Under the pieces are notes generated by a model. It was not told the DNA's origin and searched no databases. It saw nothing but the letters and a program-made list of their open reading frames with translations. From Actinomycetota bacterium (GTDB lineage: Bacteria > Actinomycetota > Geothermincolia > Fen-727 > Anoxymicrobiaceae), in the NCBI GenBank assembly GCA_018831265.1, contig JAHJCO010000019.1, forward strand, positions 104,534-168,533: a DNA stretch of 64,000 bases. The letters run 5' to 3'. Position 1 is the first letter of the stretch, and each line of letters opens with the position of its first letter. Position numbers and translations under genes: made by a program. Shown in pieces: positions 18,200-59,922 of this stretch.

Positions 18200-21100
18200 C
18201 TAGCCGGAGGAGCCTCCGATCGTGTCCGTACCGGCACCGCGGCTGTTCCAGTACATGGCGCGCTCCACCATTATTTTCCCGCCTTCCGTGGTGCAGCGCA
18301 CCAGGACGGAGGCCCGCCCGTTGAGCCCCGCGTCGAGCATGTTGAAGGTCTTGCGCGAGTTGCCGGGCACGGTGTCGTTGACGGTGATGTTCCCCACCCC
18401 GTTGGGCAGGAGGTACTGAATCTCGACGGCGACGTCGCCGTCGTTCGGGTTCTGGACCAGCGTGTAGGTCTCGCGCCCGTTGGTGGTCTCGCCGTCGGGC
18501 AGGTAGAAGGTCACGTGGGGCTGCGCCATCCCGATGGAGTCGTGGCACGACTCCCCCGCTCCCGCGTCCCAGTACATCGCCCGCTCGGCGATGATGGGCT
18601 GCGTGCCGTGCACCTGCGTAGAGCAGTCCTGCCCCGCCAGGACGTCGTTCACCCTCATCGTCTGCCGGGAGTTGGCGGCCATCTGGAATGCGGGCTGGAC
18701 CTGGGGACCGCCGCTGGTCATGTAGGTTATGGTGACGTCCGCCGCGGAGTCGTTCGGGTTCTGTATGAGGACGTAGGTGGTGAAGCCCCAGGCGGTTGTT
18801 CCCTCGGCCAGGTAGTAGTCGTAGGCGGGCGTGGTGGTGCCTGTCGAGTCGTGACCCTCCCGTCGGTTGTTGCGGTACATGGCCCTCTCGGGGATCACCG
18901 GCAGGTCGGAGGCCACCTTGATGGAGGCGTCCTCGGCCCCGATGTCGTCGACCATCGGGAAGGTGGCCCTCCCGTTGGCCGGCACCTGGTGGGCCACCTC
19001 CATGGGGGTCTTCCCCTGGATCATATAGGTGAGCGTGCAGTTCGCGACGCTGGAGTTGGGGTTCTGGACGAGCAGGAAGCACTCGAACCCCCAGTTGGTC
19101 GAGCCCTCCGGCAGGTACCAGGTCTTCGCGGAGGCTGTGATACCGACCGCGGAGTGCCCCTCCTCGAACGGCGTCCCTCCGTTCCACGACATCGTGCGGT
19201 CCACGGCGATCCCCAGGTCGTTGGTGCACTCCACCTTCGTAGAGAAGTCCCGCTCGCCCAGGGTTTCGCGGGGGAAGATGGTGGACTGGCTCATCGCCGG
19301 CATGGAGAAGGCGGGCCCAACCACCTGCCCGGTGTCGGTCATGTAGGTGACCTGGACGTCGGCGGCGCTGTTGTTCGGGTTCTCGACCGATACGTAGGTC
19401 TGGAACCCCCAGGCGGTCGTCCCCTCGGCCAGGTACCAGGTGGGCTGCGAGCCTCCGCCCAGCGCGCGCGCAGCGTTTATCCGGCCCCATCCGAACTTGT
19501 CGTCCCTGCCGCCGTCACCGAGGTCCTCCGCCGTGCTCTCGAGCCTCTGCTCGATCTCGTCGTTGGACATGCCGGGGTTCTGCGAGAAGACCAGCGCACC
19601 CAGCCCGGCGGCCATCGGGCAGGCCATGGAGGTGCCGGACAGGAAGTCGTAGTTCAAGTTGTAGCCCTCCAGGTTGGAGGTGACCGGGTAGGTCGGCAGC
19701 GTCGCGTAGATGTCCTTGCCCGGGGCGCTCAGGTCGACGCTGGAGTTGTACTGGGAGAAGTCGGCCTTCTTGTCCTTATTAGTGGTCGCTGCCACCCCGA
19801 TCACATGGTCGTACCCCGCCGGGTAGCTGATCTCGCTATTCCCGTCGTTCCCGACTGCCGCGAAAAGAGTGCAGCCCTTGTTGTAGGCGTAAGTGCAGGC
19901 GTCCCTTATCGCGGTCGACTGGCTCGAACCCCCCAGGCTCATGCTGATGATGTCGGCCCCGTGATCGGCCGCGTAGTAGATGCCGTTGGAGATCGCGGAG
20001 TTGCTTCCGCTGCCGGCCGAGTCCAGGACCTTCACCGGCAGCACGCGTGCCCCCGGGCAGGTGCCCGCCACGCCCACCCCGTTATCGGTGACCGCGGCCG
20101 CGATGCCGGCGCAGTGGGTCCCGTGCCCCCCGTCGTCGCGCGGCTTGCTGTTGGGGTTGGTCCTGAAGTAGAAGTCGTCGAACCCCAGGCCGCCCTGCTG
20201 CCAGCCCTGGGTAGTGTTGTAGAACCATCCGACACCGTCGGCGTATACAGGCTCGCTGAGAGCAGAGTAGTTGTAATAGAGGTTATAGTAATTGGCAAGG
20301 CCGGGGTCGGTATTATCAACCGCGATCTTGATGTAGTACGTGGCTCCGTTGGTCAGCGTTACCGGGGTCGGGAGCGCCTTGTATATCTCGCTGCCGGCGG
20401 TAGTGACCTCCGATGGGGTGATGGTGTAGTAAGTGATGGCACCGCCGGGCGGGTCGAGGCTGGTTGCGACGCCGACGTAGATGTTGCCCGTTCCTCCCCC
20501 TCCTACCGGGGGATTCCCCACCTTCTGAACCGCGATACCGATGTGGGTGAGCTGGCCACCGGTGCCCTTGATGGACTGTGCGAAGTACCAGTTCTCGAAC
20601 TGCCCCGCGGGTGCCTGGTAGTTTAGCTTCGACTGGGTTATACCGGCGTAGTTGTACCCGTTGGACAGCAGCTTGGACTTCTGGTCGGGGTGCGTGAAGT
20701 CGCAGCCGGTGTCAACGATAGCGATGGTGGGCGGGTTGGAGTATCCCTGCTCGATGTCCCAGGCCTCCTCCATGTCTATGTCGCAGCCTGCCGTGCCGGT
20801 GCTTCCCTCTATGCTCTGCCCGGTGTTCCGGTACCCCCACTGCGACCCGTAAGAAGGGTCGTCCGGCCTGCCGGATGCCCGGTAGACGTAGTTCGGCTCG
20901 GCATAGCGGACATAGTCGCGCGCGGACAGCTCGGCGACCGCCTGCTCGACCGAGACGCCCGGCCGAAGCGCGAGCACCCTGGCGCTCTCACCTCCCGGCG
21001 GCCCGATCTCGCCCAGTACCGTTGCGCCTCCGGCATCCGCCGCGATGCGCTCCCGGCTCGGGGCGTCGACCCCCGGCTCGAAGCCGACCACCACCTGTCC

Positions 21101-21253
21101 GGGGACATACTCGTCGAAGGAGACGCCTGCGGGCGCGGCCCCGGGGAAGGTATCGACCGGCGCCGCGGCGGCGGGAACAGCCGCGAAGGTCACACAGGCG
21201 AGCCCCAGGGCGACAACGAGAACGATGGAGGTGAGAGTGGAAGATCGCCGCAT
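18200..21253 (-). CDS. Secreted S8 subtilisin-like serine protease. Signal peptide, Asp/His/Ser catalytic domain, then six tandem ~105-aa repeat modules.
   Basis: AIVDTGCD, HGTHCAGI and GTSMACPMAAG motifs. Repeats with WYLAEGTTAWGF..Y...QNPN...A.V.VTYM. The GGGAGGCGG SD favours the ATG at 21253. The antisense ORF 18197..20626 is a GC artefact. Confidence 0.9.
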   Translation of the reverse strand: MRRSSTLTSIVLVVALGLACVTFAAVPAAAAPVDTFPGAAPAGVSFDEYVPGQVVVGFEPGVDAPSRERIAADAGGATVLGEIGPPGGESARVLALRPGVSVEQAVAELSARDYVRYAEPNYVYRASGRPDDPSYGSQWGYRNTGQSIEGSTGTAGCDIDMEEAWDIEQGYSNPPTIAIVDTGCDFTHPDQKSKLLSNGYNYAGITQSKLNYQAPAGQFENWYFAQSIKGTGGQLTHIGIAVQKVGNPPVGGGGTGNIYVGVATSLDPPGGAITYYTITPSEVTTAGSEIYKALPTPVTLTNGATYYIKIAVDNTDPGLANYYNLYYNYSALSEPVYADGVGWFYNTTQGWQQGGLGFDDFYFRTNPNSKPRDDGGHGTHCAGIAAAVTDNGVGVAGTCPGARVLPVKVLDSAGSGSNSAISNGIYYAADHGADIISMSLGGSSQSTAIRDACTYAYNKGCTLFAAVGNDGNSEISYPAGYDHVIGVAATTNKDKKADFSQYNSSVDLSAPGKDIYATLPTYPVTSNLEGYNLNYDFLSGTSMACPMAAGLGALVFSQNPGMSNDEIEQRLESTAEDLGDGGRDDKFGWGRINAARALGGGSQPTWYLAEGTTAWGFQTYVSVENPNNSAADVQVTYMTDTGQVVGPAFSMPAMSQSTIFPRETLGERDFSTKVECTNDLGIAVDRTMSWNGGTPFEEGHSAVGITASAKTWYLPEGSTNWGFECFLLVQNPNSSVANCTLTYMIQGKTPMEVAHQVPANGRATFPMVDDIGAEDASIKVASDLPVIPERAMYRNNRREGHDSTGTTTPAYDYYLAEGTTAWGFTTYVLIQNPNDSAADVTITYMTSGGPQVQPAFQMAANSRQTMRVNDVLAGQDCSTQVHGTQPIIAERAMYWDAGAGESCHDSIGMAQPHVTFYLPDGETTNGRETYTLVQNPNDGDVAVEIQYLLPNGVGNITVNDTVPGNSRKTFNMLDAGLNGRASVLVRCTTEGGKIMVERAMYWNSRGAGTDTIGGSSG

Positions 21254-21427
21254 AACTACCGCCTCCCGGTCAGCCATAAGACAAAACGTGCCTGCATGGG
21301 TTTATTCGGTCATCTGGTGCCACCCCTTAACCCTGCAGCCCGTGTTGCATGATGGCCAGGCCTTTCTGCAACTCACCTGTCGTAGGTTTGCGGGGAGGCG
21401 ATCCGGCTGAGGAGGAGTCTGCCGGGG

Positions 21428-26710: not shown

Positions 26711-26772
26711 TACTTTGGCCCTAAGGTGCCAGGCACATTAGCCCGGGATTATTAGTGCCTGGCGCTTATGGA
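26711..26772. repeat. GTGCCAGGCAC-family palindromic element immediately after a stop codon
   Basis: CTAAGGTGCCAGGCACATTAGCCCGGGATTATTAGTGCCTGGCGC. Similar to 7731..7845. Confidence 0.6.
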
Positions 26773-29325: not shown

Positions 29326-30621
<1,296 letters not shown>

Positions 30622-30754
30622 CTGAAACCGGGGTCAGGCGGGATTCAAGTCAGCCAGGTCGAATAGGCGGACTGATTGGGTTGCACCACGATACCCGGGC
30701 TTCAGTAAGGCCTATGTGCAAGGTCACGATGTAGCTGAATCCCGCCTGACCCCA
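30622..30754. repeat. GGGGTCAGGC-TIR MITE-like element (TGACTGAAACCGGGGTCAGGCGGGATTCAAGTCA ... TAGCTGAATCCCGCCTGACCCC), about 20-bp TIRs
   Basis: Starts at the enolase stop codon. The internal sequence resembles the 17932..18194 copies (CCAGGTCG...GTTGCACCACG). Confidence 0.75.
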
Positions 30755-30838
30755 ACCGTAGTCGTTCCCGCCCAGTGAGAAAAGACCTCAACCACCAGTT
30801 CCCCACGACCTGAAACCTTGCTTTGATAGACTGAGCCG

Positions 30839-32464
30839 GTGAATAGAGAGCAGTTGACCAAGGCCGCCGGAGACGCCGGCACTACCGCACGCAAGGTATC
30901 GCCCGCGTTCCTGCTCGCCGGGCTGGGGATGGCGCAGTTCATCAACACCTACGACACAGTGGCGATGAATGTGGCTGTCTCCAAGGTGGTGCAGGACCTA
31001 CACACGACGGTCACCGGGGTACAGTTCGCCCTGGCCTTCTACACGCTCGTGATGGCGGCCTTCATGATCCCCGGCGCAAAGCTCGGCGACGTATGGGGCA
31101 AGAAGCGCACCTTCACGCTCGGGGTCGCGATGTACGGGACGGGAGCGCTCATCACGTCGCTGTCACCCAACCTCACGGTCATGATCCTCGGATGGTGCGT
31201 GTGTGAGGGCCTGGGGTCTGCCCTGATGATACCCTCCATCTACGCGATACTGCCCGCCGCGTTCAAGGAGCCGGAGCAGAGGGTGAAGGCCTTCGCGGTG
31301 ATGGGTGCTATCACCGGTGCGGGGGCGGCCCTGGGCCCGCTCATCTGCGGAATCATCTCCACCTACCTCACCTGGAGGGTATCCTTCGCGGCCGAGTTCG
31401 TGGTGGTGCTGGTGATCATCGGCATGTCGCTCAGGATCAAAGGGCCCCCGCGGGTGGAGGACCGCCCGGAGTTCGACACGCTGGGGGCGGCGCTCTCGGC
31501 TGTGGGTATCGGCCTGCTCGTGACGGGGATACTGCAGGCGAACCACGTATCGACCAAGGGGTTCTGGCCGGTCATCGTGCTGGTCGGCGCCGGAGTGCTG
31601 GTCCTGCTCGGGTTCCTCTACTGGCAGGTCAGGCGCAAGCGCGCCGGACGGTCGCAGCTCATGGACCCCGCGATGCTCAGGGTCAGGCAGGTACAGCTGG
31701 GACTCCCACTCTCCGTGGTCATGATGTTCATGATGTCCGGTGCCCTCTTCGTCATCCCGGTGTTCCAGCAGATGGCGCTGGGCTTCGAGCCGGTGACCAC
31801 GGGCCTGACCTTCCTGCCCAACACGCTGGCGATGATCGTCTTGAGCCAGGTGACGGCGCGCCTCGTGCCGCGCGCGGGCAGGAAGTGGTTCGTCTTCTCC
31901 GGGCTCATCGTAACCAGCGTGGGCATCGGCGTAATAGCCGCGATGATAGACACGAGCTCCACGGCTTGGACGTTCCTCCCGGGGACGCTTCTCATGGGCG
32001 TGGGCATCGGCATGGTGATGGCGCCGCTGCAGGACCTCATCCAGTCGTCGGTTCCGCTCGAGAAGCAGAGCGAGATATCGGGGGTCTCCAGGTCCTTCTT
32101 CAACCTGGGAAGCTCGCTCGGGACGGCGATTGCCGGAGCGGTGCTGACAGCGGTGCTGATAAGCGGCATAACCTCGATGGTGATGGCCAGCCCTGCCATC
32201 ACTGCGGATCAGAAACAGCAGATTACGGCGGCCGTGCGTGTGGACACCACGACCATGAGCGACGAGGAGCTCAAGGAGTTACTCGATCAGAAGAACACGC
32301 CCCAGGAGCTCACCGATACGCTGGTCGGGATTAACTCGAAGGCGCGCAACAGGGCGCTGAAGACGGCCCTGGCGATGGTGGCCCTCATCGGGTTCATCGG
32401 CGCCTTCCTCGGGCTGATGCTGCCGGGGGACCGGCAGGGCCGTCCAAACCCGCCCGGCACCTGA
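30839..32464 (+). CDS. MFS transporter (14-TMS drug:H+ antiporter-like)
   Basis: 541 aa, 14 hydrophobic segments, MFS signature loops. GTG start at 30839, or an ATG slightly downstream. Confidence 0.85.
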   Translation: MNREQLTKAAGDAGTTARKVSPAFLLAGLGMAQFINTYDTVAMNVAVSKVVQDLHTTVTGVQFALAFYTLVMAAFMIPGAKLGDVWGKKRTFTLGVAMYGTGALITSLSPNLTVMILGWCVCEGLGSALMIPSIYAILPAAFKEPEQRVKAFAVMGAITGAGAALGPLICGIISTYLTWRVSFAAEFVVVLVIIGMSLRIKGPPRVEDRPEFDTLGAALSAVGIGLLVTGILQANHVSTKGFWPVIVLVGAGVLVLLGFLYWQVRRKRAGRSQLMDPAMLRVRQVQLGLPLSVVMMFMMSGALFVIPVFQQMALGFEPVTTGLTFLPNTLAMIVLSQVTARLVPRAGRKWFVFSGLIVTSVGIGVIAAMIDTSSTAWTFLPGTLLMGVGIGMVMAPLQDLIQSSVPLEKQSEISGVSRSFFNLGSSLGTAIAGAVLTAVLISGITSMVMASPAITADQKQQITAAVRVDTTTMSDEELKELLDQKNTPQELTDTLVGINSKARNRALKTALAMVALIGFIGAFLGLMLPGDRQGRPNPPGT

Positions 32465-32483
32465 CTCCTTGAGCCCGGTAATT

Positions 32484-32628
32484 GTGAAAGAATGCCTCTG
32501 AAAGAATACCTCAGACCAAAACTTTCACGGGAAGGCGAGATCCAGCGGTTTGCACAGCGATGAAAGAAATGGTCTGAGGTTTTCTTTCATTCACAGCGAT
32601 GAAAGAAATGGTCTGAGGTATTCTTTCA
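32484..32628. repeat. Array of the 29-bp imperfect palindrome TGAAAGAA-N2-(GGTCTGAGG or its complement)-N3-TTCTTTCA. One partial unit plus three full units (32499..32527, 32561..32589, 32600..32628).
   Basis: Lies between the convergent MFS and hydrolase genes. The last unit ends 1 nt from the hydrolase stop codon. Confidence 0.8.
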
Positions 32629-32629
32629 T

Positions 32630-33847
32630 TCAGGCGGGCATCACTGAGGCCAGCCAGTCGAACATCCTCTTGTCGTAGAGAGCGCGGGCCTTGGGCTCGC
32701 AGTGCCAGTTGGCCCCCTCCTCGCGGGTGAACGGCACAAGCGCCTTCGGTGACTCGAGAGCGTCGTACACCTCCCGCGACTGGCCGGGCCAGAACTGCTC
32801 GTCGTCGGGGTCCGCGATGAACATTGGGCAGGTTATCTGCTTGATCACTTCGCGGGCGTTGTATTCCTGCGAGGCCTTGATCCACTCGAAATAGCTGTCG
32901 GCCCCGTAAGGCTTCATGCGCCAGGCGACCGTCTGGCGCGTCTCCTGCCCCATCATCTTCAGGGCGAGTCCCATCTCCTTGTTGAACTCCTCCTCCTCAC
33001 CGGCCTCCAGCAGCTTCATCATGCGCTTGGGGAACCTGCCGGCCACCGCTGTAGAGACGTCCATCACCCCGGGGTCCGCGATTCCCGCCGCGATGCGGTG
33101 CTCGAAGGCGAGCGCGCGGAGTATCCAGTAGCCGCCCTGACTGATCCCGGAGAGCGCGATGCGGTTCGGGTCGACATCCGGGCGTGCGACGAGAAAGTCC
33201 ACCACCGGGGTTATGACAGCCTCCCAGTCCGGGCGGAACGGCAACTTGTGCATGAAGAGCATGGCGTTCTGGCCCGGGCCGTCGAAGACCAGTGCGGCAT
33301 ACCCCCGCGCGAGCGCCCCCGCCACCCCGGAGCCCCACATCGCCACGGTCGGCCCGTCGCTGCCGTTGTTGAAGATGATGGTCGCCCATGGCCCGCCGGA
33401 GTCGTCCGGCTTGAAGAAGTAGCCGGGCATGGGGGTCTTCTCGTACGGTATCTCCACCCTCTCGGCCGGCGGGGAGAGCCTCGAGCAGAACCGGTCGAAG
33501 CATTCGATGTGCTCCTTCCAGTAGTCGGCGCCCCTGCCAGGGTCGTCCGTCCCGTCGATCATAGAGAGCGTCGCGGCGTAGTACGCGGAGGCGCGGAGGT
33601 AAGCCTGCCGGGCGCTCACGTCGTTCCCGCTCCCCACCGACTCGTCGGCGTACCCCCTAACCCGCGCCGCGGTCTCCAGCCAGCCGTCAACCCAGCTCTC
33701 CGCGTCGCCGGACCGGATACACTCGGCCGTCATGAGGATCTCTCCGGCGTCGGCGGTTCCGAAGTAACACGAGCCCAGCATTATCTGGAGCTCGAAGTCC
33801 ATCTGCTCGTGCTTGAAGAACCACTGCTTAGCCTTCGCGGCGGCCAT
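32630..33847 (-). CDS. Alpha/beta-hydrolase (dienelactone-hydrolase / S9-like)
   Basis: GISQGGYW nucleophile elbow. Start taken at MAAAKAKQW (33847). The 742-aa ORF upstream extension is R/G-rich junk. Confidence 0.75.
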   Translation of the reverse strand: MAAAKAKQWFFKHEQMDFELQIMLGSCYFGTADAGEILMTAECIRSGDAESWVDGWLETAARVRGYADESVGSGNDVSARQAYLRASAYYAATLSMIDGTDDPGRGADYWKEHIECFDRFCSRLSPPAERVEIPYEKTPMPGYFFKPDDSGGPWATIIFNNGSDGPTVAMWGSGVAGALARGYAALVFDGPGQNAMLFMHKLPFRPDWEAVITPVVDFLVARPDVDPNRIALSGISQGGYWILRALAFEHRIAAGIADPGVMDVSTAVAGRFPKRMMKLLEAGEEEEFNKEMGLALKMMGQETRQTVAWRMKPYGADSYFEWIKASQEYNAREVIKQITCPMFIADPDDEQFWPGQSREVYDALESPKALVPFTREEGANWHCEPKARALYDKRMFDWLASVMPA

Positions 33848-33936
33848 CGGTAAACCTCGCTTTCGTCCGTCCCTCTCGAGGGTGCAAGCCCCCTCACCCT
33901 GCCCTCTCCCCCGGGGGGGGAGAGGGTTCAATAGTA

Positions 33937-34332
33937 TCACCGCCGCAGGATGACCGCCGTGGAGGTGGAGGTCGATATCAGTCGCCCCTCCTCGTCGGTG
34001 ATCTTCGCCTCGAGGAACGATATGTTCCGCCCCCTCCTGGTCACCGACCCCTCGCCGATGAACTTGCCGCGCCTCATGGGTCGCAGGAAGTTGATCTTCA
34101 GCTCGGCGCTGCTGAACGTCTCTCCCTCCTCGACGGTGGTGGCCATCGCCGAGCCCATCAGCTCGTCCGCGAACACGGCCAGGAAGCCGCCCAGTACGTT
34201 GCCCACGGGGTTGTCGAACCGGTCGTCGACAATGGTCCAGGTCCAGCGGGTGTAACCGTCCTTCATCACCTCGATGTCGAAGCCCATGGTCCTGTCGCAC
34301 GGCGGCGGCATGGCTATCTCGTCCGAGCGCAT
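33937..34332 (-). CDS. PaaI/hotdog-fold thioesterase
   Basis: NPVGNVLGGFLAVFADE ... hotdog motif. 131 aa. Confidence 0.8.
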   Translation of the reverse strand: MRSDEIAMPPPCDRTMGFDIEVMKDGYTRWTWTIVDDRFDNPVGNVLGGFLAVFADELMGSAMATTVEEGETFSSAELKINFLRPMRRGKFIGEGSVTRRGRNISFLEAKITDEEGRLISTSTSTAVILRR

Positions 34333-34504
34333 GGTGGCTCTCCTTTACTTGCGCACTACCTGGCATAGATTCTAAACCCGGGCGTTGAATCCCGCACCCG
34401 GTCCGGCGTGACAACCCGGGGCAGGGCATCGGGCCCGGGCGTCGTATAGGAACCGTGCACGAGGAGTACAGGGATTGTAAGTGCCTGGCACGGGTCGGTG
34501 GGGG

Positions 34505-36220
34505 ATGGACTACAACATCAAGATCGGCGGGGCGGCGGGTCAGGGCATCCAGACCATCGGTGACACGCTCTCCGCGGTGTTCGCACGGTCGGGCTACCAC
34601 CTGTTCTCGCACCAGGACTACGAGTCGAGGGTGCGCGGTGGGCACAACTTCACCTGCATCAGGCTCTCGGACACCCCGGTGTACGCCCCGCGCGACCCCG
34701 TGGACGTACTCGTCGCGCTGGACAACGCGAGCATCGAGCGGCACACCGGGGAGCTTTCCTCCGACGGCAAGGTCGTCTACGACTCCGGGGGCTTGAAGAG
34801 GAAGGTCGACGATCCCCGGTTCGTAGACGTTCCTTTCGTAAGGCTCGCCGAGGAGCACGGGGGTAGGAAGGTCATGGCCAACACCGTGGCCTCAGGGGCG
34901 GTGCTGGGGATGCTGGGCGTCGAGGTGGACCTGCTGGTCGAGGCGCTCACAAGGGCGCTCAAGCACCCCACCCCCGAGATACTGGAGGGGAACGAGAGGG
35001 CCGCGCGCGCGGGGCACTCCTACGGCGTCGAGCACTGCCCGGACTGCCGGTTCGCGGTGTCGGGGAGGAGCGTGCGCAAGATGGTCATCGAGGGGAACCA
35101 GGCGATAGCCCTGGCCGCCATCGCGTCGGGCTGCAGGTTCTACTCCGCCTACCCCATGACTCCCTCCACCGGGATACTCAACTTCATGGCGTCGAAGGCC
35201 GCCGATTACGGCCTGGTCGTCGAGCAGGCCGAGGACGAGATGTCGGCCATAAACATGATCCAGGGGGCCTCCTTCGCCGGGGTCCGGTCCATGACCGGGA
35301 CCTCGGGGGGCGGCTTCGCGCTGATGGTGGAGGGCATGTCACTGGCCGGGATGACCGAGACCCCGGTGGTGGTGGTGCTGGCGCAGCGTCCCGGGCCGGC
35401 CACGGGCTTTCCCACCCGCACCGAGCAGTCGGACCTGCTGTTCGGGCTGTTCGCGGGGCACGGCGAGGTACCGCGTATCGCGTTCGCCCCCGGCACCCCC
35501 GAGCAGGCGTTCCGGGCGGTCAACAGGGCGTTCGACCTGGCGGAGAAGTACCAGGTCCCGGCCCTCATCATCACCGATCAACACTACGCGGACTCACGCT
35601 GGACCCTGGAGGGCATAGACCCCGAGACCTTCGTCTACAACGACTATCGTGTCGGGGGGGAGGCCTTCGCCGAGCTCCCCGAGTACGCGAGGCACTCCTT
35701 CACAGACAGTGGGGTCTCACCGCTGGCGGTCCCCGGCGACGCGCCCCACCTGGTGGTGACCGACTCCGACGAGCACGACGAGGAGGGGCACATCGTAGAG
35801 GACGCGGAGACCAGGGTGAAGATGGTGGAAAAGCGCCTGCTACGCAAGCTTCCGCTCATAGGGGCCGAGATGGAGCCGCCGGAGCACTACGGCAGCGACT
35901 CGCCGGAGGTGGTGCTGGTCGGCTGGGGCTCGAACTACGGGGTCCTGAGGGAGGCCGTGGACGCGCTCTCCGGGGAGCGGGAGGTCGCCATGCTGCACTT
36001 CTGCGACCTGTGGCCGTTCCCGCTTCCGGCCAGGCAGGAGTTCCTGGAGGTCCTGCGGGCAGCGAGGACCGCGATCTGCGTGGAGAACAACGCCACGGGC
36101 AAGCTGGCCTGGCTTATCCGGGCCGAGACCGGGTTCGAGTTCGCCGAGCGCATCAACAGGTTCGACGGAAGGCCGTTCACGTGTGAGGGCCTCCTGGAGG
36201 AGATAGATGGACGCCTCTGA
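34505..36220 (+). CDS. 2-oxoacid:ferredoxin oxidoreductase alpha subunit (gamma-alpha fusion type)
   Basis: N-terminal gamma-like IKIGGAAGQGIQT. Adjacent beta subunit. Confidence 0.9.
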   Translation: MDYNIKIGGAAGQGIQTIGDTLSAVFARSGYHLFSHQDYESRVRGGHNFTCIRLSDTPVYAPRDPVDVLVALDNASIERHTGELSSDGKVVYDSGGLKRKVDDPRFVDVPFVRLAEEHGGRKVMANTVASGAVLGMLGVEVDLLVEALTRALKHPTPEILEGNERAARAGHSYGVEHCPDCRFAVSGRSVRKMVIEGNQAIALAAIASGCRFYSAYPMTPSTGILNFMASKAADYGLVVEQAEDEMSAINMIQGASFAGVRSMTGTSGGGFALMVEGMSLAGMTETPVVVVLAQRPGPATGFPTRTEQSDLLFGLFAGHGEVPRIAFAPGTPEQAFRAVNRAFDLAEKYQVPALIITDQHYADSRWTLEGIDPETFVYNDYRVGGEAFAELPEYARHSFTDSGVSPLAVPGDAPHLVVTDSDEHDEEGHIVEDAETRVKMVEKRLLRKLPLIGAEMEPPEHYGSDSPEVVLVGWGSNYGVLREAVDALSGEREVAMLHFCDLWPFPLPARQEFLEVLRAARTAICVENNATGKLAWLIRAETGFEFAERINRFDGRPFTCEGLLEEIDGRL

Positions 36221-37058
36221 CGAGTTCAAGGGCCAGAAGCCGGCATGGTGCCCGGGGTGCGGCAACTTCGGGATACTGACGGCCTGGCGCAGGGCCATGG
36301 CGGACCTCGGGCTGAAGCCGCACCAGCTCACGGTGGTCTCGGGGATAGGTCAGTCCGGCAAGTTCCCGCACTACACGCAGTGCAACACCTTCAACGGCCT
36401 GCACGGGCGCACCCTGCCAGTGGCCACGGGGATACGGCTTGCCAACCACGAGATGCCGGTGGCCGCGTTCGCGGGGGACGGTGACTGCTACGGCGAGGGG
36501 GGCAACCACTTCCTCCACGCGATGCGGCGCAATATAAACGTCAAGCTGTTCGTGCACGACAACCAGGTCTACGGGCTGACCAAGGGCCAGGCCTCCCCGA
36601 CCAGCGTGGTCGGGATGAAGACACCGGTGCAGCCGGAGGGGGTCCTCTCCGACGAGATGAACCCGGTGGCCCTGGCGGTGGCGATGGACTGCAGCTTCGT
36701 GGCCCGCGGTTTCGCGGGAGACCTCGACCAGTTGGCCGAGCTGATGAAGGCGGCAATGGAGCACAGGGGCTTCAGCCTGGTGGACATCTTCCAGCCGTGT
36801 GTGACATTCAACCGGCTCAACACCTACCAGTGGTACAGGGAGAGGGTCAGGCCGCTGGAGGCGGAGTACGACCCGGGCGATCGCGTCACCGCCTGGCAGC
36901 GCGCGCTGGAGTTCGAGGACACCATCCCCACCGGCATCCTGTACAGGCACGAGCGACCCACCTACGAAGAGCGCGTGGCGGCGCTGGCCGCCGGCCCGCT
37001 GGTGAAGCAGCCGTTCGACGCGTCGAAGCTCGCGGCCGCCTTCCGCGAGTTCTACTGA
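36207..37058 (+). CDS. 2-oxoacid:ferredoxin oxidoreductase beta subunit (TPP-binding)
   Basis: CPGCGNFGIL and GDGDCYGEGGNH TPP motifs. Overlaps the alpha subunit stop. Confidence 0.9.
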   Translation: MDASDEFKGQKPAWCPGCGNFGILTAWRRAMADLGLKPHQLTVVSGIGQSGKFPHYTQCNTFNGLHGRTLPVATGIRLANHEMPVAAFAGDGDCYGEGGNHFLHAMRRNINVKLFVHDNQVYGLTKGQASPTSVVGMKTPVQPEGVLSDEMNPVALAVAMDCSFVARGFAGDLDQLAELMKAAMEHRGFSLVDIFQPCVTFNRLNTYQWYRERVRPLEAEYDPGDRVTAWQRALEFEDTIPTGILYRHERPTYEERVAALAAGPLVKQPFDASKLAAAFREFY

Positions 37059-37059
37059 C

Positions 37060-37176
37060 TGAAAGAAGACCTCAAACCATTTCTTTCATTCTGGAGGATG
37101 AGGCGGACTGAAAGTTTTGGTCTGAGGTAATCTTTCACAGGTTTCTGTGAAAGAATCGGTCTGAGGTAATCTTTCA
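37060..37176. promoter_or_regulatory. Three-unit module of the TGAAAGAA...GGTCTGAGG...TTCTTTCA palindrome (37060..37088, 37109..37137, 37148..37176) filling the 5' region of the CoA-transferase-GNAT gene. The last unit overlaps the ATG.
   Basis: Units read directly. The GAGGT SD-like sequence sits in the loop of the last palindrome, 8 nt before ATG 37176. Confidence 0.75.
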
Positions 37177-39056
37177 TGATCGAGTATGACCCCGAGGCGC
37201 TGACAAGGCGGTACCCCGGGAAGTTCGCGCCCGACGAGAAGGTCTTCGATGCCATCCGCAGGGGCGACCACCTCTACGTCGGCACCGGCTGCGGCGAGCC
37301 TCAGCACCTGCTCAAGGCGCTGGCCGCATTCGTGGACGACAACCCCAAGGCGTTCTTCGACGCCGAGGTGTTCCAGGTCTGGACCCTGGGGGTCGCTCCT
37401 TACGCCGAGGAGAAGTTCCTCTCCAACTTCCGGCACAACTCCTTCTTCATCGGGGACAACACGCGACAGGCGGTGAACGAGGGGCTGGCCGACTACACGC
37501 CCGTGTTCCTCTCCGAGGTGCCGGACCTGTTCCGCCGGGGACTGGTTCCCATCGACGTAGCGCTCATCCAGGCATCACCGCCGGACCGCAACGGCTACAT
37601 GAGCCTGGGTGTCAGCGTAGACATAACCAAGGCGGCGGTCGAGGTCGCGGACAGGGTAATCTGCCAGGTCAACCCCCGCATGCCGCGCGTGTTCGGGGAC
37701 TCCTTCATCCACGTCGAGGACGCGACCTTCCTGGTGCACTTCGAGGAGCCGCTGCTGGAGTATACGGCAACGGTCCCCGGCGAGCTGGCCCGTAAGATCG
37801 GGGGGTACGTGGCCAGGATTGTCGAGGACGGAGACACCATCCAGGTCGGTTACGGGAGCATACCGAACGCAATCCTGGCCGGGCTCGCCGAGAAGAAGCA
37901 CCTGGGAGTGCACACCGAGCTGCTGAGCGACGGCATCGTCGACCTCACGCGCTCCGGGGCCGTGGACAACAGCATGAAGGCGGTCGATAAGGGCAAGACG
38001 GTCGCAACGTTCTGCATGGGCACCGCGCCCACCTACGAGTTTATCGGGGACAACCCCTCCATCGAGTTCAGGCCCATAGACCGGACCAACAACCCGCTGG
38101 TCATCGCGGCCAACAGCCGCATGACCGCTATCAACGGCGCGCTGGCCGTGGACCTCACCGGCCAGTCCACCGCCGAGTCAATCGGCCCCATGTTCTACTC
38201 GGGCATCGGCGGCCAGGCCGACTTCATGAGGGGGGCGGTGCTCTCCCCCGGGGGGAAGTCGATACTGGTCCTGCCCTCCACCACCGCGGACGGGGAGACC
38301 TCCCGGATCGTGCCAAGCATCCCCGAAGGGGCGGGCGTGACCCTGACCCGCGGGGACATCCACTACGTGGTGACCGAGTACGGCATCGCCTACCTGCACG
38401 GCAAGAACATCCGGCAGCGGGCCATGGAGCTGATCGCCATCGCCCACCCACGGTTCAGGCAGTGGCTCATCGACGAGGCGAAGGGCTCCAACCTAATCTA
38501 CAGCGACCAGATCTTCGTCTCCGGCAAGGAGGGGGAGTACCCCGAGGAGCTCGAGAAGCCCCGCACCACCCGCGCCGGCCTGGAGATACTGCTGCGCCCG
38601 GTCCGCATGAGCGACGAGCCGCTGATCAAGGACTTCTTCTACTCCCTGTCCGACCAGAGCAACTACCGGCGGTTCATCATGCTGCGACAGCGGCTCTCGC
38701 ACGAGGTCCTGCAGAAGTTCGTGGCCATAGACTACACGCGTGAGATGGCGATTCTGGCGACGGTGCGGGAGGAGGAGATGGAGAAGGTGGTCGGCATGGG
38801 CCAGTACGTGGTCACGGGGGACACGCACACGGCCGAGGTCGCGCTGGCCGTGCGGGACGATCACCAGAAGCAGGGTATCGGCACCGAGCTGCTCCAGCAG
38901 CTCGAGCGGGCGGCCCGGCGCCAGGGCCTCCTGGGTTTCACCGCCGTGGTCCTGGGCGAGAACAGGCCGGTGATGAAGATGCTGGAGCGCTCCGGGTATG
39001 ACGTGCACAAAAGCAGCTCGGAGGGGGTCGTCCACCTCACCGCCAACTTCCGCTGA
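37176..39056 (+). CDS. Bifunctional acetyl-CoA hydrolase/transferase-family domain fused to a C-terminal GNAT acetyltransferase domain
   Basis: N-terminal ~430 aa matches the CoA-transferase family III-like Cat1/Ach1 fold (GTGCGEPQ ... GIGGQADF). C-terminal GNAT Q/R-x-x-G-x-G/A motif HQKQGIGTELL. Paralog at 48006..49898 (-). Confidence 0.8.
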   Translation: MIEYDPEALTRRYPGKFAPDEKVFDAIRRGDHLYVGTGCGEPQHLLKALAAFVDDNPKAFFDAEVFQVWTLGVAPYAEEKFLSNFRHNSFFIGDNTRQAVNEGLADYTPVFLSEVPDLFRRGLVPIDVALIQASPPDRNGYMSLGVSVDITKAAVEVADRVICQVNPRMPRVFGDSFIHVEDATFLVHFEEPLLEYTATVPGELARKIGGYVARIVEDGDTIQVGYGSIPNAILAGLAEKKHLGVHTELLSDGIVDLTRSGAVDNSMKAVDKGKTVATFCMGTAPTYEFIGDNPSIEFRPIDRTNNPLVIAANSRMTAINGALAVDLTGQSTAESIGPMFYSGIGGQADFMRGAVLSPGGKSILVLPSTTADGETSRIVPSIPEGAGVTLTRGDIHYVVTEYGIAYLHGKNIRQRAMELIAIAHPRFRQWLIDEAKGSNLIYSDQIFVSGKEGEYPEELEKPRTTRAGLEILLRPVRMSDEPLIKDFFYSLSDQSNYRRFIMLRQRLSHEVLQKFVAIDYTREMAILATVREEEMEKVVGMGQYVVTGDTHTAEVALAVRDDHQKQGIGTELLQQLERAARRQGLLGFTAVVLGENRPVMKMLERSGYDVHKSSSEGVVHLTANFR

Positions 39057-39136
39057 CTAAGATAGGGGTCAGGCGGGAGTCTATTCACATGGTTGTTGGC
39101 GTGACTTGACTGGTGCCTGACCCCGATTCTAGTCAG
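39054..39136. repeat. GGGGTCAGGC-TIR element with extended TIRs CTGACTAAGATAGGGGTCAGGC / GCCTGACCCCGATTCTAGTCAG
   Basis: Begins at the stop codon of the preceding gene. Confidence 0.75.
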
Positions 39137-39666: not shown

Positions 39667-40030
39667 CCCTGAGCTTGAGCGATATCGAGTTCACGCAGTG
39701 CCGCGTGTTCTTCGGGGTAAGACCTTCTCCCTCGAAGACGTGGCCCAGGTGGCCGCCGCAGCGCGCGCAGGTTATCTCCGTCCGGAAGCCGTCCGCGTCG
39801 GTGGTCCGCACGACCGCCCCCTCGATCTCGTCATCGAACGCCGGCCACCCGCAGCCCGAGCGGAACTTGTCCACGGACCTGTAAAGGGGCGCCTCGCACC
39901 TCCTGCATACGTAAGTACCGGGCTCGAAGCAGCCCTCGTATTCGCCCGAGAACGGCATCTCGGTGCCCTTGTCGACCATGACGCGCTCTTCCTCGGGGGT
40001 CAACTCGTTCAGCTTCATGTCATTCTCCAT
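39650..40030 (-). CDS. msrB: Peptide-methionine (R)-S-oxide reductase
   Basis: CxxC...CxxC zinc site and the [17 protein letters not shown] catalytic region. Overlaps msrA by 17 nt. Confidence 0.9.
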
Positions 40031-40036
40031 AATAGA

Positions 40037-40132
40037 GGGGCGTCGGACACTTTCATTGCGTTATGACGCTAACGACATCGGCCTGGTCCAACGGCACTGC
40101 AAGTGTCCGACCCCCCGGTTCGTCCAAGGGTC
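40037..40132. repeat. GGGGCGTCAGAC-family MITE-like element (GGGGCGTCGGACACTTTCATTGCG ... CCAACGGCACTGCAAGTGTCCGACCCCCCGGTTCGTCCAAGGGT)
   Basis: Shares TIR and internal core with 14831..14928 and 63020..63186. Confidence 0.7.
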
Positions 40133-40410
40133 GGTCATCCCTTACGTCCCGGTGTAACTTTTGTCACATGGAGCGTAGCGCCTCCCCCTGCGTCTGGCAT
40201 ATGAGCCCGGTCAACCCGGGCCCCACCCCGCGCCCACCCGGGCGCCCGCAGTGAGAGGCGCTGATGTCGGGAGTTCAACGCCCGGGGCCCGAATCCTGCA
40301 CGCGCCTGAGATTATTCCGAAGTCTGGCCCCGTCATTCGTGACGGTTCAGTCACGGGACCATTTTCCCGATATACCATGTGGGGGTCGGACGCCTATCCA
40401 GGGGGTAGTC

Positions 40411-43400
40411 ATGGGCAAGAGAGCGACCGCACCGATTGCATGCTTTCTCGTGCTGGTGGGACTCGTGTTCGGGGTCGGGTGGAACTGCCGGTCGGCGAGC
40501 GCGGGGCGGGCGGAGATCTCCGGCGACCACGTGCCGGGCGAGGTAATCGTCAAGTTCAAGCCCGCGGTGGCGGCCAGCACCGAGGACGCCGTACTGGCAA
40601 CGGAACGACTCACAGTCAAGCACGAGAACGAGCGGCTTGGCTTCAAAGTGGTCGACCTTCCCGGAGGCACCTCGGTTGCTGAGGCCGTGGCCGATCTTTC
40701 TGCCGACCCACGGGTGGAGTATGCCGAGCCCAACTACATCGACCACGTCCTCGATGAGCCTGCGATGGTCCCCGACGATCCCCTGTACCCCAGCCAGTGG
40801 CACATGCACGGCTTCGCCGAGGGCGGCATCGACGCCCAGACCGCCTGGGACACCGAGGAGGGCGACCCCACGGTCATAGTGGCGGTGGTGGACACCGGGG
40901 TAGCCTACGAGAACTACGGGAGTTACAGCCAGGCGCCGGACCTGGCGGGTACCACCTTCGTTTCGCCGTACGACGCAATCGACCTGGACGGGCACCCGAA
41001 CGACACTAACGGCCATGGGACGCACGTGACCGGGACCATAGCCCAGACGACCAACAACGCGCTGGGGTGCGCCGGCGCAGCCCACGGGTGTACCATTATG
41101 CCTGTGAGGGGCATCGGTACGCATTCCCAGATGGCCGATGCCTACACCTGGGCCACCGACCACGGGGCGGATGTGATCAACTACAGTGGCGGCGGTAGCG
41201 CTTCGGAGACAAAGAGGGCCGCCTGCCAGTACGCGTACGACAACGGTGTCACCATCTGCGCCGCTACCGGGAATGACAACGGCCCGATTATTTACCCGGC
41301 GGCATATGATCTGTACTGCATCGCCGTAGGGGCCACCGACCGTAACAAGAACCGCGCATGGTACTCCAACTACGGTCCGCAGATAGACGTTGTCGGTCCC
41401 GGTGGGGACACGACAGGCGGGTCGGTGAACGGCGTCTGGCAGCAGACCTACGTGACCGAAGACGACCCCTCCAGCGGCTTCAATTACCAGGGCTGGCAGG
41501 GGACGTCAATGGCCACGCCTCACGTGAGTGCGACGGCTGCTCTCTATATCTCAAACTCGGGGATAATCAACAACCCCGACGCGGTGAGGTCCCGTCTCCA
41601 GACCACGGCACACGACCTCGGCGGAGCCGGCTGGGACCAGTACTTCGGTTACGGGCTGGTTGACGCGAACCTCGCGGTGATAGCCGACAATCCCGTGCCG
41701 GTCACCACATCCATTTCGCCTGACAACCGGAACGCCGGGGCCCCCGGCTTCACCCTGACCGTCAACGGGGCGGGATTCGTAGCGGACTCACAGGTCCGCT
41801 GGAACGGCTCAGACCGCACCACGACCTACATATCGGGCAACCAGCTGACGGCGCAGATCGCGGCCGGAGACATCACAACCGCCGGGAGCGCCCTGGTCAC
41901 CGTGTTTAACCCCGCTCCGGGGGGCGGCACCTCCAACGTACAGACATTCGACATCCAGACCCCGGTGAACCCGGCACCGAGCATTTCATCGCTCTCACCT
42001 GACCACGCGACGGCCGGCGGCCCCGGGTTCACCCTGACCGTCAACGGTACGGGGTTCATCGGTGATTCGCAGGTGAGCTGGAATGGCGCGAACCTTCCCA
42101 CCACTTACGTCTCGAGCACCAGGCTCACGGCTACCGTCCCGGCGGCGAGCATCGCCGGCGGAGGGGCCGCACAGGTGTGCGTGTCGAACCCCCCGCCCGG
42201 GGGAGGGGAGTCGGCCGCGAAGTCGTTCTCCATCGTCCAGGCCGCCTCGGAGTGGTACCTGGCCGAGGGCACGACCGGTTGGGGCTTCGACACCTACGTA
42301 TCGATCGTCAACCCCAACGACAGCGCGGTGAACGCTCAGGTGACCTACAACACAACGAGCGGCCCGATGGACGGAGGCACGGTGAACATGCCGCCCGAGA
42401 GCCGGGCCACCGTCTACCCCAGGGACGTCCTGGGCGAGGCCGACTTCTCGACCACGGTGACCTGCGCGGGGGGAAAGCCGATAGCGGTGGACCGCACCAT
42501 GACATGGACCGGCACGGGGGCGGCCGCCGCCGAGGAGCACTCCTCCATAGGGGTCACGGCCCCCGCTACCACCTGGTACCTGCCCGAGGGCTCGTCCGCA
42601 TGGGGGTTCGAGACCTGGCTGCTCATCCAGAACCCTGGCGCGACCGGCGCGACCTGCCAGGTCACCTACATGCTGGAGGGCGAGCCGCCGGTCACGGTCC
42701 AGAAGGGCGTCCCGGCCGGCTCCAGGCAGTCCTTCAACATCGCGGAGGACATCGGGACCAGGGATGCCAGCATCTCCGTTGTGTCCGACGCGCCCGTCAT
42801 CCCCGAGCGCGCCATGTACAAGGACGCCCGGCGCGAGGGCCACGACTCCATAGGCACCACCACCCCGGCGGCCGACTACTACCTGGCGGAGGGCACCACG
42901 GCCTGGGGGTTCACCACCTACGTGCTGGTGCAGAACCCGCAGGACCAGGCGGCCGACGTGACCGTCACCTACATGACACCGGAGGGTGCGCTCGAGCAGC
43001 CTGCCTTCAGCCTGCCCGCGAACTCACGCAAGACCATAAGGGTCAACGACGTGAGCCCCGCGGCCGGCTACCCCATAGACGTCTCCAACACCGACTTCTC
43101 GACCCGGGTACACGCCAGCAAGCCCATAATCGCGGAGCGGGCTATGTACTGGGAGTCCGAGACGGGCCAGGCCTGCCACGACTCCATCGGTATGAGCGAG
43201 CCGCACGCGACCTTCTACCTGCCTGACGGACAGGCGGGAGCCCAGGTGGAGACCTGGACCCTGGTGCAGAATCCCAACGGCACCCCGGTCGAGGTCGAGG
43301 TGACCTACCTCTCGCCCGACGGCACCGCGAACAAGACCTTCACCGTCACCATCCCCGCCAATTCCCGCTCTACCTTCAACATGGCCGATCAGGGCGTAGA

Positions 43401-43521
43401 CGGAAGGGCCGGGATCATGGTCACCTGCCTCACTCCCGGCGCGAAGATCATGGCCGAGCGCGCCATGTACTTCGACAACAGGTCCGGCGGTACGGATACC
43501 ATAGGCGGCTACAGCGATTAG
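40411..43521 (+). CDS. Secreted S8 subtilisin-like serine protease with Fn/Ig-like spacer domains and tandem C-terminal ~105-aa repeat modules (paralog of 18200..21253)
   Basis: Signal peptide MGKRATAPIACFLVLVGLVFG. VVDTGV, HGTHVTGTIA and GTSMATPHVS motifs. Repeats WYLAEGTTGWGF...VNPN. Confidence 0.9.
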   Translation: MGKRATAPIACFLVLVGLVFGVGWNCRSASAGRAEISGDHVPGEVIVKFKPAVAASTEDAVLATERLTVKHENERLGFKVVDLPGGTSVAEAVADLSADPRVEYAEPNYIDHVLDEPAMVPDDPLYPSQWHMHGFAEGGIDAQTAWDTEEGDPTVIVAVVDTGVAYENYGSYSQAPDLAGTTFVSPYDAIDLDGHPNDTNGHGTHVTGTIAQTTNNALGCAGAAHGCTIMPVRGIGTHSQMADAYTWATDHGADVINYSGGGSASETKRAACQYAYDNGVTICAATGNDNGPIIYPAAYDLYCIAVGATDRNKNRAWYSNYGPQIDVVGPGGDTTGGSVNGVWQQTYVTEDDPSSGFNYQGWQGTSMATPHVSATAALYISNSGIINNPDAVRSRLQTTAHDLGGAGWDQYFGYGLVDANLAVIADNPVPVTTSISPDNRNAGAPGFTLTVNGAGFVADSQVRWNGSDRTTTYISGNQLTAQIAAGDITTAGSALVTVFNPAPGGGTSNVQTFDIQTPVNPAPSISSLSPDHATAGGPGFTLTVNGTGFIGDSQVSWNGANLPTTYVSSTRLTATVPAASIAGGGAAQVCVSNPPPGGGESAAKSFSIVQAASEWYLAEGTTGWGFDTYVSIVNPNDSAVNAQVTYNTTSGPMDGGTVNMPPESRATVYPRDVLGEADFSTTVTCAGGKPIAVDRTMTWTGTGAAAAEEHSSIGVTAPATTWYLPEGSSAWGFETWLLIQNPGATGATCQVTYMLEGEPPVTVQKGVPAGSRQSFNIAEDIGTRDASISVVSDAPVIPERAMYKDARREGHDSIGTTTPAADYYLAEGTTAWGFTTYVLVQNPQDQAADVTVTYMTPEGALEQPAFSLPANSRKTIRVNDVSPAAGYPIDVSNTDFSTRVHASKPIIAERAMYWESETGQACHDSIGMSEPHATFYLPDGQAGAQVETWTLVQNPNGTPVEVEVTYLSPDGTANKTFTVTIPANSRSTFNMADQGVDGRAGIMVTCLTPGAKIMAERAMYFDNRSGGTDTIGGYSD

Positions 43522-44612: not shown

Positions 44613-44690
44613 CCTGACTAAGAATGGGGTCAGGCACTATTCTGAGTCATTGCACTGAATCGAATCGCGCCTGACCCCTATCCTAGTCAC
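44613..44690. repeat. GGGGTCAGGC-TIR element with TIRs CTGACTAAGAATGGGGTCAGGC / GCCTGACCCCTATCCTAGTCAC
   Basis: Between flavodoxin and the short Fe-S gene. Confidence 0.75.
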
Positions 44691-45189
44691 CGGCCTTTGC
44701 GATCACCTCACGGGCGAACTCGCGCGCCCGCTCGATGCGAGACTCGTCCGGCTGCCCCTTCCCCTCGCCGGACGCACCCGCCTCACCGAACGCCCTGAGC
44801 TTCGGGTCGTCGGCCTTGAGCAGGAAGTCGATTATCGCCTGGTCCACCTCACCCTGGCAGTCGAACAACCCCAGCAGGTCGGCTTCGGACGCCGCCTCCC
44901 TGCAGGCCGCCAGCCAGCCGGCGACGTCCTCGTGGTCCTCCGGGGCGCCGTGGGTGGTGAAGACCGCGACCGTCTTGCCGGCGACGTTATTCTCGATGAA
45001 CTCCTTCGCCGCCGGGTTGGGACCCCCGGCGTTGATGGGAAAGCCGATGAAGATGAGGTCGTAGGCCTCGAGGCTCTCGATCCCTGACAGCTCCCCGAAC
45101 TCCTTCTCCCCGGGGACCTCCCCGAAGATCGCCTCGGCGACCCTCCTGGTGTTGCCGGTGTTGGATACGTAGGTCACGAGCGTCTTCAT
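44683..45189 (-). CDS. Flavodoxin
   Basis: MKTLVTYVSNTGNTRRVAEAI FMN-phosphate loop. 168 aa. Confidence 0.85.
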   Translation of the reverse strand: MKTLVTYVSNTGNTRRVAEAIFGEVPGEKEFGELSGIESLEAYDLIFIGFPINAGGPNPAAKEFIENNVAGKTVAVFTTHGAPEDHEDVAGWLAACREAASEADLLGLFDCQGEVDQAIIDFLLKADDPKLRAFGEAGASGEGKGQPDESRIERAREFAREVIAKAGD

Positions 45190-46383: not shown

Positions 46384-46489
46384 GTGCTCCTCCTCGCTCC
46401 CTCCGCGGCACGGGCCATGAGACCACGTTCCTTCAGATAAACTATATGATGTGTGCGGATAAGGAAATGACGGCTGACGGAGCCCGGAC

Positions 46490-48002: not shown

Positions 48003-48005
48003 GAG

Positions 48006-49914: not shown

Positions 49915-50037
49915 TGAAAGAATACCTCAGACCAAAACTTTCATCCGCGCGGAAGAAAACCTCAGACCAGTTCTCTCGCGGGGTTTGCTGCCGTGGGTTG
50001 GTGAATAGTGAAAGAAATGGTTTGAGGTTTTCTTTCA
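49915..50037. promoter_or_regulatory. Second three-unit module of the TGAAAGAA...GGTCTGAGG...TTCTTTCA palindrome (49915..49943, degenerate 49952..49976, 50009..50037), upstream of the minus-strand CoA-transferase-GNAT paralog
   Basis: Read on the minus strand, the order and orientation (complement form, then two GGTCTGAGG forms, then SD-ATG) match the 37060..37176 module. Unit 49915..49943 differs by 1 nt from unit 37109..37137. Confidence 0.75.
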
Positions 50038-54188: not shown

Positions 54189-54190
54189 GA

Positions 54191-58134: not shown

Positions 58135-58163
58135 TGAAAAAAGTGGTCTGAGGTTATTTTTCA
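58135..58163. repeat. Solo unit of the GGTCTGAGG palindrome family (TGAAAAAAGTGGTCTGAGGTTATTTTTCA) overlapping the stop codon of 58154..58663
   Basis: Read directly. Confidence 0.65.
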
Positions 58164-59850: not shown

Positions 59851-59922
59851 GACACTTGAACGTGCTCGATTCCCATAAACACCACGATTGGGGTCCACGC
59901 GTTAAAGAGTCTGCCCCTCTAT

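Follow-up and report, generated by a model that had tools for sequence, protein, structure and literature searches.

In REP/RAYT systems the transposase gene is typically flanked by inverted REPs, which is their canonical layout (PMC3337134; PMC2817692). One RAYT serves one REP family, and RAYT genes are single-copy and syntenic between relatives in the REPIN-RAYT systems described (PMC3337134, PMC5581495). A GTAG or CGTC tag marks most described REPs, though not all (PMC3733652). As far as their text is searchable, key surveys of REPs and RAYTs make no mention of Actinobacteria. The palindromic units described in this work have been identified in a 64-kb stretch of actinobacterial DNA, analysed as a whole and called the window hereafter. 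We propose, with a probability of roughly 0.87, that they are REP elements, occurring singly, as REPIN-like inverted doublets and in small BIME-like clusters, and that they belong to a REP/RAYT system in the genome of an uncultivated member of the Actinomycetota.

Units fit the 29-nt consensus TGAAAG-N4-GGTCTGAGGT-N3-CTTTCA, and are denoted F when the GGTCTGAGGT core lies on the plus strand, R when the reverse complement of that core does. The arm pattern TGAAAG-N17-CTTTCA, searched in the window with up to 2 mismatches, matched 10 times against 0.76 expected, and 10 matches were reached in 0 of 100 shuffles; one of the 10, at 16003, has no core and is put down to chance. The exact core is found at 8 places, and 10 units reside at 4 loci in the window (Table 1). 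The GC content of units is 34%, that of the window about 65% (63-68%). In a set of 38 distinct units, 84.5% of the stem positions are paired, a level that none of 500 shuffles and no slid register attained; two-sided changes are seen at 6 of the 9 stem pairs. The outer six stem pairs are strongly conserved in this set, and the core G11-T20, GGT(C/T)TGAGGT, is nearly invariant. The conserved loop, of 11-13 nt, is unusually long, and stems are weak, the predicted folds of units as single-stranded DNA ranging from -1.8 to -5.3 kcal/mol.

Two subtypes can be distinguished. Alpha units (TGAAAGAAA...TTTCTTTCA) have a stem of the full 9 bp (-5.3 kcal/mol as ssDNA), whereas that of beta units (TGAAAGTTT...ATTCTTTCA) has 6 bp (-1.8 kcal/mol as ssDNA), and the AAA (alpha) versus TTT (beta) asymmetry is an orientation mark of each unit. 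Adjacent R-F pairs are heterotypic in 11 of 11 cases, with spacers of 5-65 nt. The alpha/beta doublet folds into a long imperfect hairpin in which a 3x3 internal mismatch is fixed, and any transcript crossing a doublet is predicted to carry a strong hairpin. Same-orientation tandems and single units are common as well. Neither the GTAG nor the CGTC tetranucleotide is conserved within or beside the units whose flanks were listed. A consensus scan of the region 32300-37400 revealed no sigma-70-like promoter motif, and the same region has 0 sites resembling an intrinsic terminator, i.e. a G+C-rich stem followed by a T tract; unit stems are A/T-rich. Rfam and tRNA scans of the window returned nothing, and no match coincides with units.

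Table 1. Repeat units, neighbouring genes and related features. Positions refer to the window, except in the last line.
Feature	Position	Strand	Remarks
MFS transporter gene	30854..32464	+	stop 20 nt upstream of the cluster
Partial unit, 14 nt, TGAAAGAATGCCTC	32485..32498	-	same as nt 1-14 of the adjacent unit (repeat copy 32485-32513)
REP unit, beta, TGAAAGTTTTGGTCTGAGGTATTCTTTCA read on the minus strand	32499..32527	- (R)	repeat and pattern searches
33-nt spacer of the inverted doublet	32528..32560	.	without homology to spacers of other modules
REP unit, alpha, TGAAAGAAATGGTCTGAGGTTTTCTTTCA, perfect 9-bp stem	32561..32589	+ (F)	pattern search, ssDNA fold
REP unit, alpha	32600..32628	+ (F)	tandem duplicate of the preceding unit and its spacer
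Alpha/beta hydrolase (peptidase S9-like), 405 aa	32630..33847	-	convergent with the MFS gene; stop codon 32630-32632
4HBT thioesterase, 131 aa	33937..34332	-	public gene calls
Second REP cluster	37060..37176	+	R-alpha 37060-37088, F-beta 37109-37137, F 37148-37176
Third REP cluster	49915..50037	-	50009-50037 (F), 49950-49978 (R, degenerate), 49915-49943 (R)
Solo REP unit	58135..58163	+	carries the last two codons and the stop (58154-58156) of gene 58154-58663(-)
GTGACT family	1048-1085, 17943-17977, 18108-18145, 30618-30652, 30731-30765, 39050-39087, 39097-39136, 44615-44648, 44656-44693, 47965-48009		second hairpin-repeat family
RAYT-1 gene on L043	4001-4765		R alpha units upstream at 3844 and 3888; F beta units downstream at 4811, 4861 and 4892

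The cluster at 32485-32628, called locus A, had been singled out as an array of one partial and three full units set between the stops of convergent genes, 1 nt from the hydrolase stop. All coordinates of the original prediction are correct, the array ending at 32628, next to the stop codon at 32630-32632. Its F units arose as a local 39-nt tandem duplication (32553-32591 versus 32592-32630, 97% identity). The RNA of locus A is predicted to fold at -74.9 kcal/mol (z = -6.8), with the partial unit paired to the 3' half of the extra F unit at 32600-32628. Read on the minus strand, locus A has the order alpha(R)-alpha(R)-spacer-beta(F), which is the layout found around the RAYT gene, minus the gene. 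The same locus A is present in a second assembly, GCA_018824995.1. The three hydrolase homologues compared (P0004, P0007, P0011; 70-73% identity) are not syntenic with locus A, and have no units nearby. A 742-aa ORF spanning 32630-34858(-) was discarded as a read-through artefact of a high-GC genome: third-position GC changes phase near 33870, and public gene calls give two genes in different frames, the hydrolase and the thioesterase of Table 1. As a side observation, Logan contigs L033, L034, L044 and L046 (SRR2540949 / SRR2544004) begin or end within REP units, and these breaks include the unit beside the hydrolase stop; short-read assemblies of this population are broken at these sites because of the REP repeats.

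The second cluster has on one side the stop (37058) of the beta gene of a 2-oxoacid:ferredoxin oxidoreductase (OFOR), and on the other the ATG (37176) of gene B, which encodes an acyl-CoA (acetyl-CoA) hydrolase/transferase + GNAT protein. Unit 37148-37176 supplies the A of this ATG and a GAGG located 9 nt upstream of it, and in the predicted RNA fold (-50.6 kcal/mol, z = -3.0) the R unit pairs with the unit bearing GAGG and start codon. Judged from the sequence, any effect of this unit would concern translation signals, not a promoter. The third cluster, which is R-F-F when read on the minus strand, separates the stop of an enoyl-CoA hydratase gene (50051) from paralogue C, which has its ATG at 49898 and a GGAGG of its own. 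Both modules sit between co-directional genes. The finding of three-unit arrays upstream of both paralogues has, for the window, a chance of about 0.02, a rough post-hoc estimate. The gain of triplets at both places is a mild coincidence, which could reflect target preference, chance or recruitment.

The original prediction saw the same three-unit module recur at these loci, suggestive of a mobile cassette. Unit 32499-32527 is indeed identical to 49915-49943 (29/29 positions), the solo unit does overlap a stop codon, and the three modules have a common R-F-F arrangement. The likeness ends there, as a position-wise comparison of modules A, B and C shows different unit subtypes, and their spacers have no significant similarity (p = 0.63, 0.085, 1.0). 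Modules A, B and C were therefore rejected as copies of one cassette, given the different subtype order, the unrelated spacers, and the origin of one unit pair by local tandem duplication. Inheritance of the modules along with the duplication of genes B and C was rejected too, because the similarity of the paralogues begins 40-50 nt inside the coding regions, and relatives lack the modules.

Units are not confined to the window. Contig JAHJJV010000042.1 of MAG GCA_018822775.1 (Actinomycetota bacterium) matches the window at 99.995% identity. Among homologues of the encoded proteins are those named Candidatus Geothermincolia and Anoxymicrobiaceae, and the sister MAG JAZDFZ01 (GCA_043807425.1) has 88-95% nucleotide identity to the window population in shared loci. 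When species-representative genomes were searched with a relaxed unit pattern, JAZDFZ01 proved to host units on at least 15 contigs, with at least 19 matches; the other 11 among the matches listed are single, have different stems, come from unrelated phyla and look like chance. In JAZDFZ01 some units immediately follow stop codons, others lie between convergent genes or upstream of starts, and one is inside a coding 3' end (L026, 2789-2817). Locus L043, described below, has 6 units. The strict unit pattern had 0 matches in JGI metagenome contigs. The units are a dispersed repeat family, and not a site tied to two promoters.

Pfam searches of the about 50 window genes revealed no transposase or recombinase gene. 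A first lead to a RAYT came from tblastn with RayT and IS200 queries (E = 0.006), which hit an ORF between two inverted units at the sister-genome locus L005, and was pursued with Pfam and NCBIfam. The corresponding protein of the window population, RAYT-1 (P0241, 254 aa), is encoded at L043 (contig JAHJJV010000032.1, GCA_018822775.1) and is 98% identical to the L005 protein. Both genes have the same layout, between inverted units, and the two loci (L042/L043 versus L005) are 88-92% identical and syntenic. RAYT-1 matches Pfam Y1_Tnp (PF01797) at 40 bits, the cut-off being 23. Its best NCBIfam match is REP_Tyr_transpos, over the whole model length (E = 2e-17), at 63 bits, which is less than the equivalog cut-off of 80. 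The HUH histidines His60 and His62, and Tyr119 in the motif YxxLNPV, are invariant in 23 homologues, and the profile of these homologues matches, among solved structures, only E. coli TnpArep bound to REP (PDB 4ER8). A single-sequence PDB search returned only spurious kinase matches, and the profile was required. At the C-terminus RAYT-1 has a helix-turn-helix-like tail, with weak matches to LacI and sigma-70 region 4.

A second RAYT, P0242, 69% identical to RAYT-1, is present in the same population (L045), and is syntenic in JAZDFZ01 (L049). Each RAYT protein is found on one contig per assembly. RAYT-2 is flanked by a sister repeat family that has the same core and different arms (TGAGAA/TGGGAA). 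This variant, with the core GGTTTGAGGT or GGTTGAGGT, was noted at L045 (3843-3964 and 4852-4914) and L049 (2383-2411 and 3375-3434), and has no copy in the window. Scanning JGI metagenome contigs for RAYT proteins yielded one distant relative (46% identity, L048), flanked by a different inverted repeat. No flanking direct repeat is found at 18 of 26 unit clusters, and the others have direct repeats of 1-2 nt, which is chance level. Missing target-site duplications fit the chemistry of REP/RAYT systems, which is of the IS200/IS605 type.

Presence and absence of units at orthologous sites are informative. In L047 (JAZDFZ01 contig 54), which is 89-95% identical to the window over 43.7-55.9 kb and encodes an orthologue of paralogue C of 97% identity, the 127-nt module C of the window is replaced by 89 nt of unrelated DNA. 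The alignment has sharp borders, ...CTATG on one side and GGAGGTGCGGATG... on the other, and similarity between the two inserts does not exceed that of shuffles. The GGAGG of paralogue C lies downstream of the module, and is identical in this REP-free sister. At L038 the gene B orthologue (88% identity at the amino acid level), the OFOR genes upstream, the MIEYD start and the spacer length of 117 nt are all as in the window, but the spacer contains no units. RAYT flanks vary too, with 2+3 units in one genome and 1+1 in its sister. Homologue loci of 70-75% identity have no units. Since the orthologous junctions upstream of both paralogues are unit-free in relatives, sequence comparison indicates that the arrays at the gene B and C junctions are recent, and not ancient operators. 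As unrelated DNA replaces the module at both REP-free sites, gain in one lineage and loss in the other are not formally separable. Several other intergenic segments differ between the L047 genome and the window, despite genes 90-95% identical. As an example, a MqsA-like + DUF4258 toxin-antitoxin-like pair resides in a spacer of the sister (L047 9681-10240) and is missing in the window (about 45387-46450).

Other repeats occur in the window. A second hairpin family, GTGACT-N6-GGGGTCAGGC-N4-TTCAAGTCAC, is more abundant there than the REP units, and is mostly found as inverted pairs just past stops (Table 1). The position of the pair downstream of gene B is conserved in the relative L038. The 46%-identical RAYT relative at L048 is flanked by inverted GGGTCAGGTCTTGAAATAT, and for this reason the GTGACT family may be another RAYT-linked REP family. 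A family of 70-120-nt repeats (75-90% identity) is found at 14808-14937, 40024-40156 and 63007-63208, with two tandem copies at 63007-63146, and an 83-nt match (94% identity) in the sister genome (L006, 3493-3575). A 30-nt intergenic motif, GTGCCAGGCACATTAGC..., has three copies (7740-7769, 26726-26755, 54165-54194), and a 41-nt inverted intergenic pair, 40100-40140 / 59818-59858, is 93% complementary and contains GGGGGGTCAGACAC. Large secreted subtilase paralogues, encoded at 18200-21277 (-), 40264-43521 (+) and 1-987 (+), have tandem DUF5719-type repeats of roughly 100 aa, and explain the long DNA repeats, direct and inverted, numbered D1-D4 and I3-I7.

The original prediction had left the choice between a REP- and a MITE-like element open, and had suggested to look for target-site duplications and for a RAYT elsewhere in the genome. 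A RAYT-type gene was found, on another contig and flanked by inverted units, which favours REPs; duplications were not, which fits REP/RAYT and speaks against MITEs. That the units are ends or fragments of MITEs, moved by a DDE transposase recognising a 16-20-nt terminal inverted repeat (TGAAAGAAnACCTCAGACCA), is thus very unlikely. The inverted doublets resemble terminal inverted repeats, and four sister-genome loci (L002, L012, L028, L026) share a composite of about 135 nt. Yet units often stand alone or in same-orientation tandems, searches of the window genes revealed no DDE transposase, and the only gene found flanked by units encodes a Y1/RAYT transposase. The nature of this enzyme bears also on a dif- or lox-like reading, in which the units would serve a tyrosine site-specific recombinase as core sites. 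A division of the 29 nt into an 11-nt arm, a 7-nt asymmetric centre and a second 11-nt arm is possible, and the arms match as inverted repeats at 9 of 11 positions, but with dozens of copies dispersed in either orientation recombination would be lethal, and no recombinase gene is nearby. Copy number and the association with a HUH/Y1 transposase make this reading scarcely credible, and it was rejected. Inverted arms may also look like the half-sites of an operator. A transcription factor co-regulating acyl-CoA metabolism would bind as a dimer to TGAAAG-N17-CTTTCA, at three sites per promoter, as could be imagined from the triplets directly upstream of both paralogous acyl-CoA hydrolase/GNAT genes. 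This is highly improbable. Units also reside between the convergent stops of locus A, inside gene ends, around a transposase gene, and beside unrelated genes on at least 15 contigs; a site for a symmetric dimer would not normally have an asymmetric core like the invariant one seen here; and the scanned region offers no sigma-70-like motif. Regions upstream of orthologues of 88-97% protein identity (L038 for gene B, L047 for gene C) do without units, and the operator hypothesis is largely refuted by these sites. An array shared by all relatives was the outcome that the original prediction had named as contrary to mobility, and it is not what is seen; the checks that the prediction had suggested all favour the REP reading. 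The proposed co-option at two paralogous promoters is not supported, as the scanned region has no promoter-like motif, the genes on either side of each module are co-directional, and sister genomes lack these modules.

A role at the RNA level is compatible with the REP nature of the units, and would come in addition to it. The cluster at locus A may act as a 3'-end stabiliser of, or a barrier to, the two convergent transcripts. That of gene B may switch translation, with the R unit pairing with one F unit or the other, and thereby able to mask the GAGG and AUG of the last unit. The strong hairpins predicted at both loci point in this direction, and so do the start of gene B, which in the window coincides with the final base of a unit and is shared, as MIEYD, by the L038 orthologue, and the many units which adjoin or supply stop codons. 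Effects of REPs on mRNA turnover have been reported (PMC3479197). However, an inverted doublet yields a hairpin automatically, no terminator-like T tract is present, sister genomes do without the modules, and paralogue C retains its own GGAGG downstream of the module, as the REP-free sister does. A selected role of this kind is rather unlikely.

A bolder combination of ideas may be contemplated, though we regard it as unlikely. The REP triplets preceding both acyl-CoA hydrolase/GNAT paralogues may have become, by independent recruitment in this species, an RNA switch common to the two, R pairing with either F to expose or hide the GAGG and AUG of gene B, and both paralogues being placed under one control. 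The system may at the same time be the first REP/RAYT system described in Actinomycetota, with untagged A/T-rich REPs and a RAYT provided with an extra DNA-binding tail, and hence with a recognition mode unlike that of E. coli TnpArep.

Under the REP/RAYT reading, which we prefer, each 29-nt unit would form a weak hairpin, rich in A/T, whose stem has 6-9 bp. The single-copy RAYT-type HUH/Y1 transposase most likely recognises and cuts unit hairpins on single-stranded DNA, and cutting would move or copy doublets into intergenic DNA without target-site duplication. That this RAYT mobilises the units is suggested by its association with them and by the paradigm of IS200/IS605 and TnpArep. Arrays would then expand and shrink locally via tandem duplication or slippage, and the cluster at locus A may be regarded as one deposit at a tolerated site between converging genes. 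The substrate recognised may differ from that of the E. coli model, because of the lack of a GTAG/CGTC tag, the long conserved loop and the weak stems.

The A/T-rich palindromes of this genome find an explanation as products of a REP/RAYT system, and annotators and regulon hunters should not call them operators or promoters. They are an ordinary kind of bacterial selfish repeat, and extend REP/RAYT pairs to a little studied, uncultivated lineage of anaerobic actinobacteria. Two co-diverged RAYT/REP pairs, with an untagged long-loop REP, are usable to study how Y1 transposases recognise hairpins. The clusters also provide concrete cases of REPs giving host genes stop codons, a start codon and a Shine-Dalgarno-like motif.

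Similarities to, and differences from, known repeats are marked. Like Correia, ERIC, BOX and mycobacterial MIRU elements, which are MITEs or modular repeats, the units are small intergenic sequences which can lie between cistrons, overlap stops and starts, and give rise to long RNA hairpins. Those elements, however, make target duplications or lack a dedicated transposase, whereas the units described here make no duplication and flank a RAYT. IS200/IS605 elements have in common with this system a Y1 HUH transposase (Pfam PF01797), subterminal hairpins, and the lack of an inverted-repeat/duplication signature. In contrast to them, the transposase is here single-copy, and resides at a fixed chromosomal locus in two relatives (about 90% nucleotide identity), and the hairpins, in many copies, are dispersed by themselves.

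The resemblance to the REPIN-RAYT systems of Pseudomonas fluorescens SBW25 is closer. In both, the inverted doublet is recurrent and spacers are unique to each doublet (PMC3116915, PMC3337134), several RAYT paralogues are each associated with a REP family of their own, RAYTs are single-copy and syntenic between relatives, and an AA/TT-type asymmetry, here AAA in alpha and TTT in beta units, gives REPs their orientation. Doublet spacing is variable here (5-65 nt), unlike in SBW25 REPINs, and same-orientation tandems are frequent. Compared to the REP/BIME-RayT system of E. coli, the host belongs to the actinobacteria, not the gammaproteobacteria; units carry no GTAG tag, are A/T-rich (34% GC) in a 65% GC genome, and have an 11-13-nt conserved loop in place of a short loop with a stem bulge; and the RAYT is about 90 aa longer, the helix-turn-helix-like tail being located at its C-terminus. 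Yet in both systems short imperfect extragenic palindromes occur singly and in clusters, with alternating orientation and subtype, as the Y and Z REPs of BIMEs do; inverted REPs flank the transposase gene; HUH and catalytic Tyr motifs align with those of TnpArep (4ER8); and target-site duplications are missing. On the whole, the system has most of the features that define the E. coli REP/BIME-RayT and the Pseudomonas REPIN-RAYT systems.
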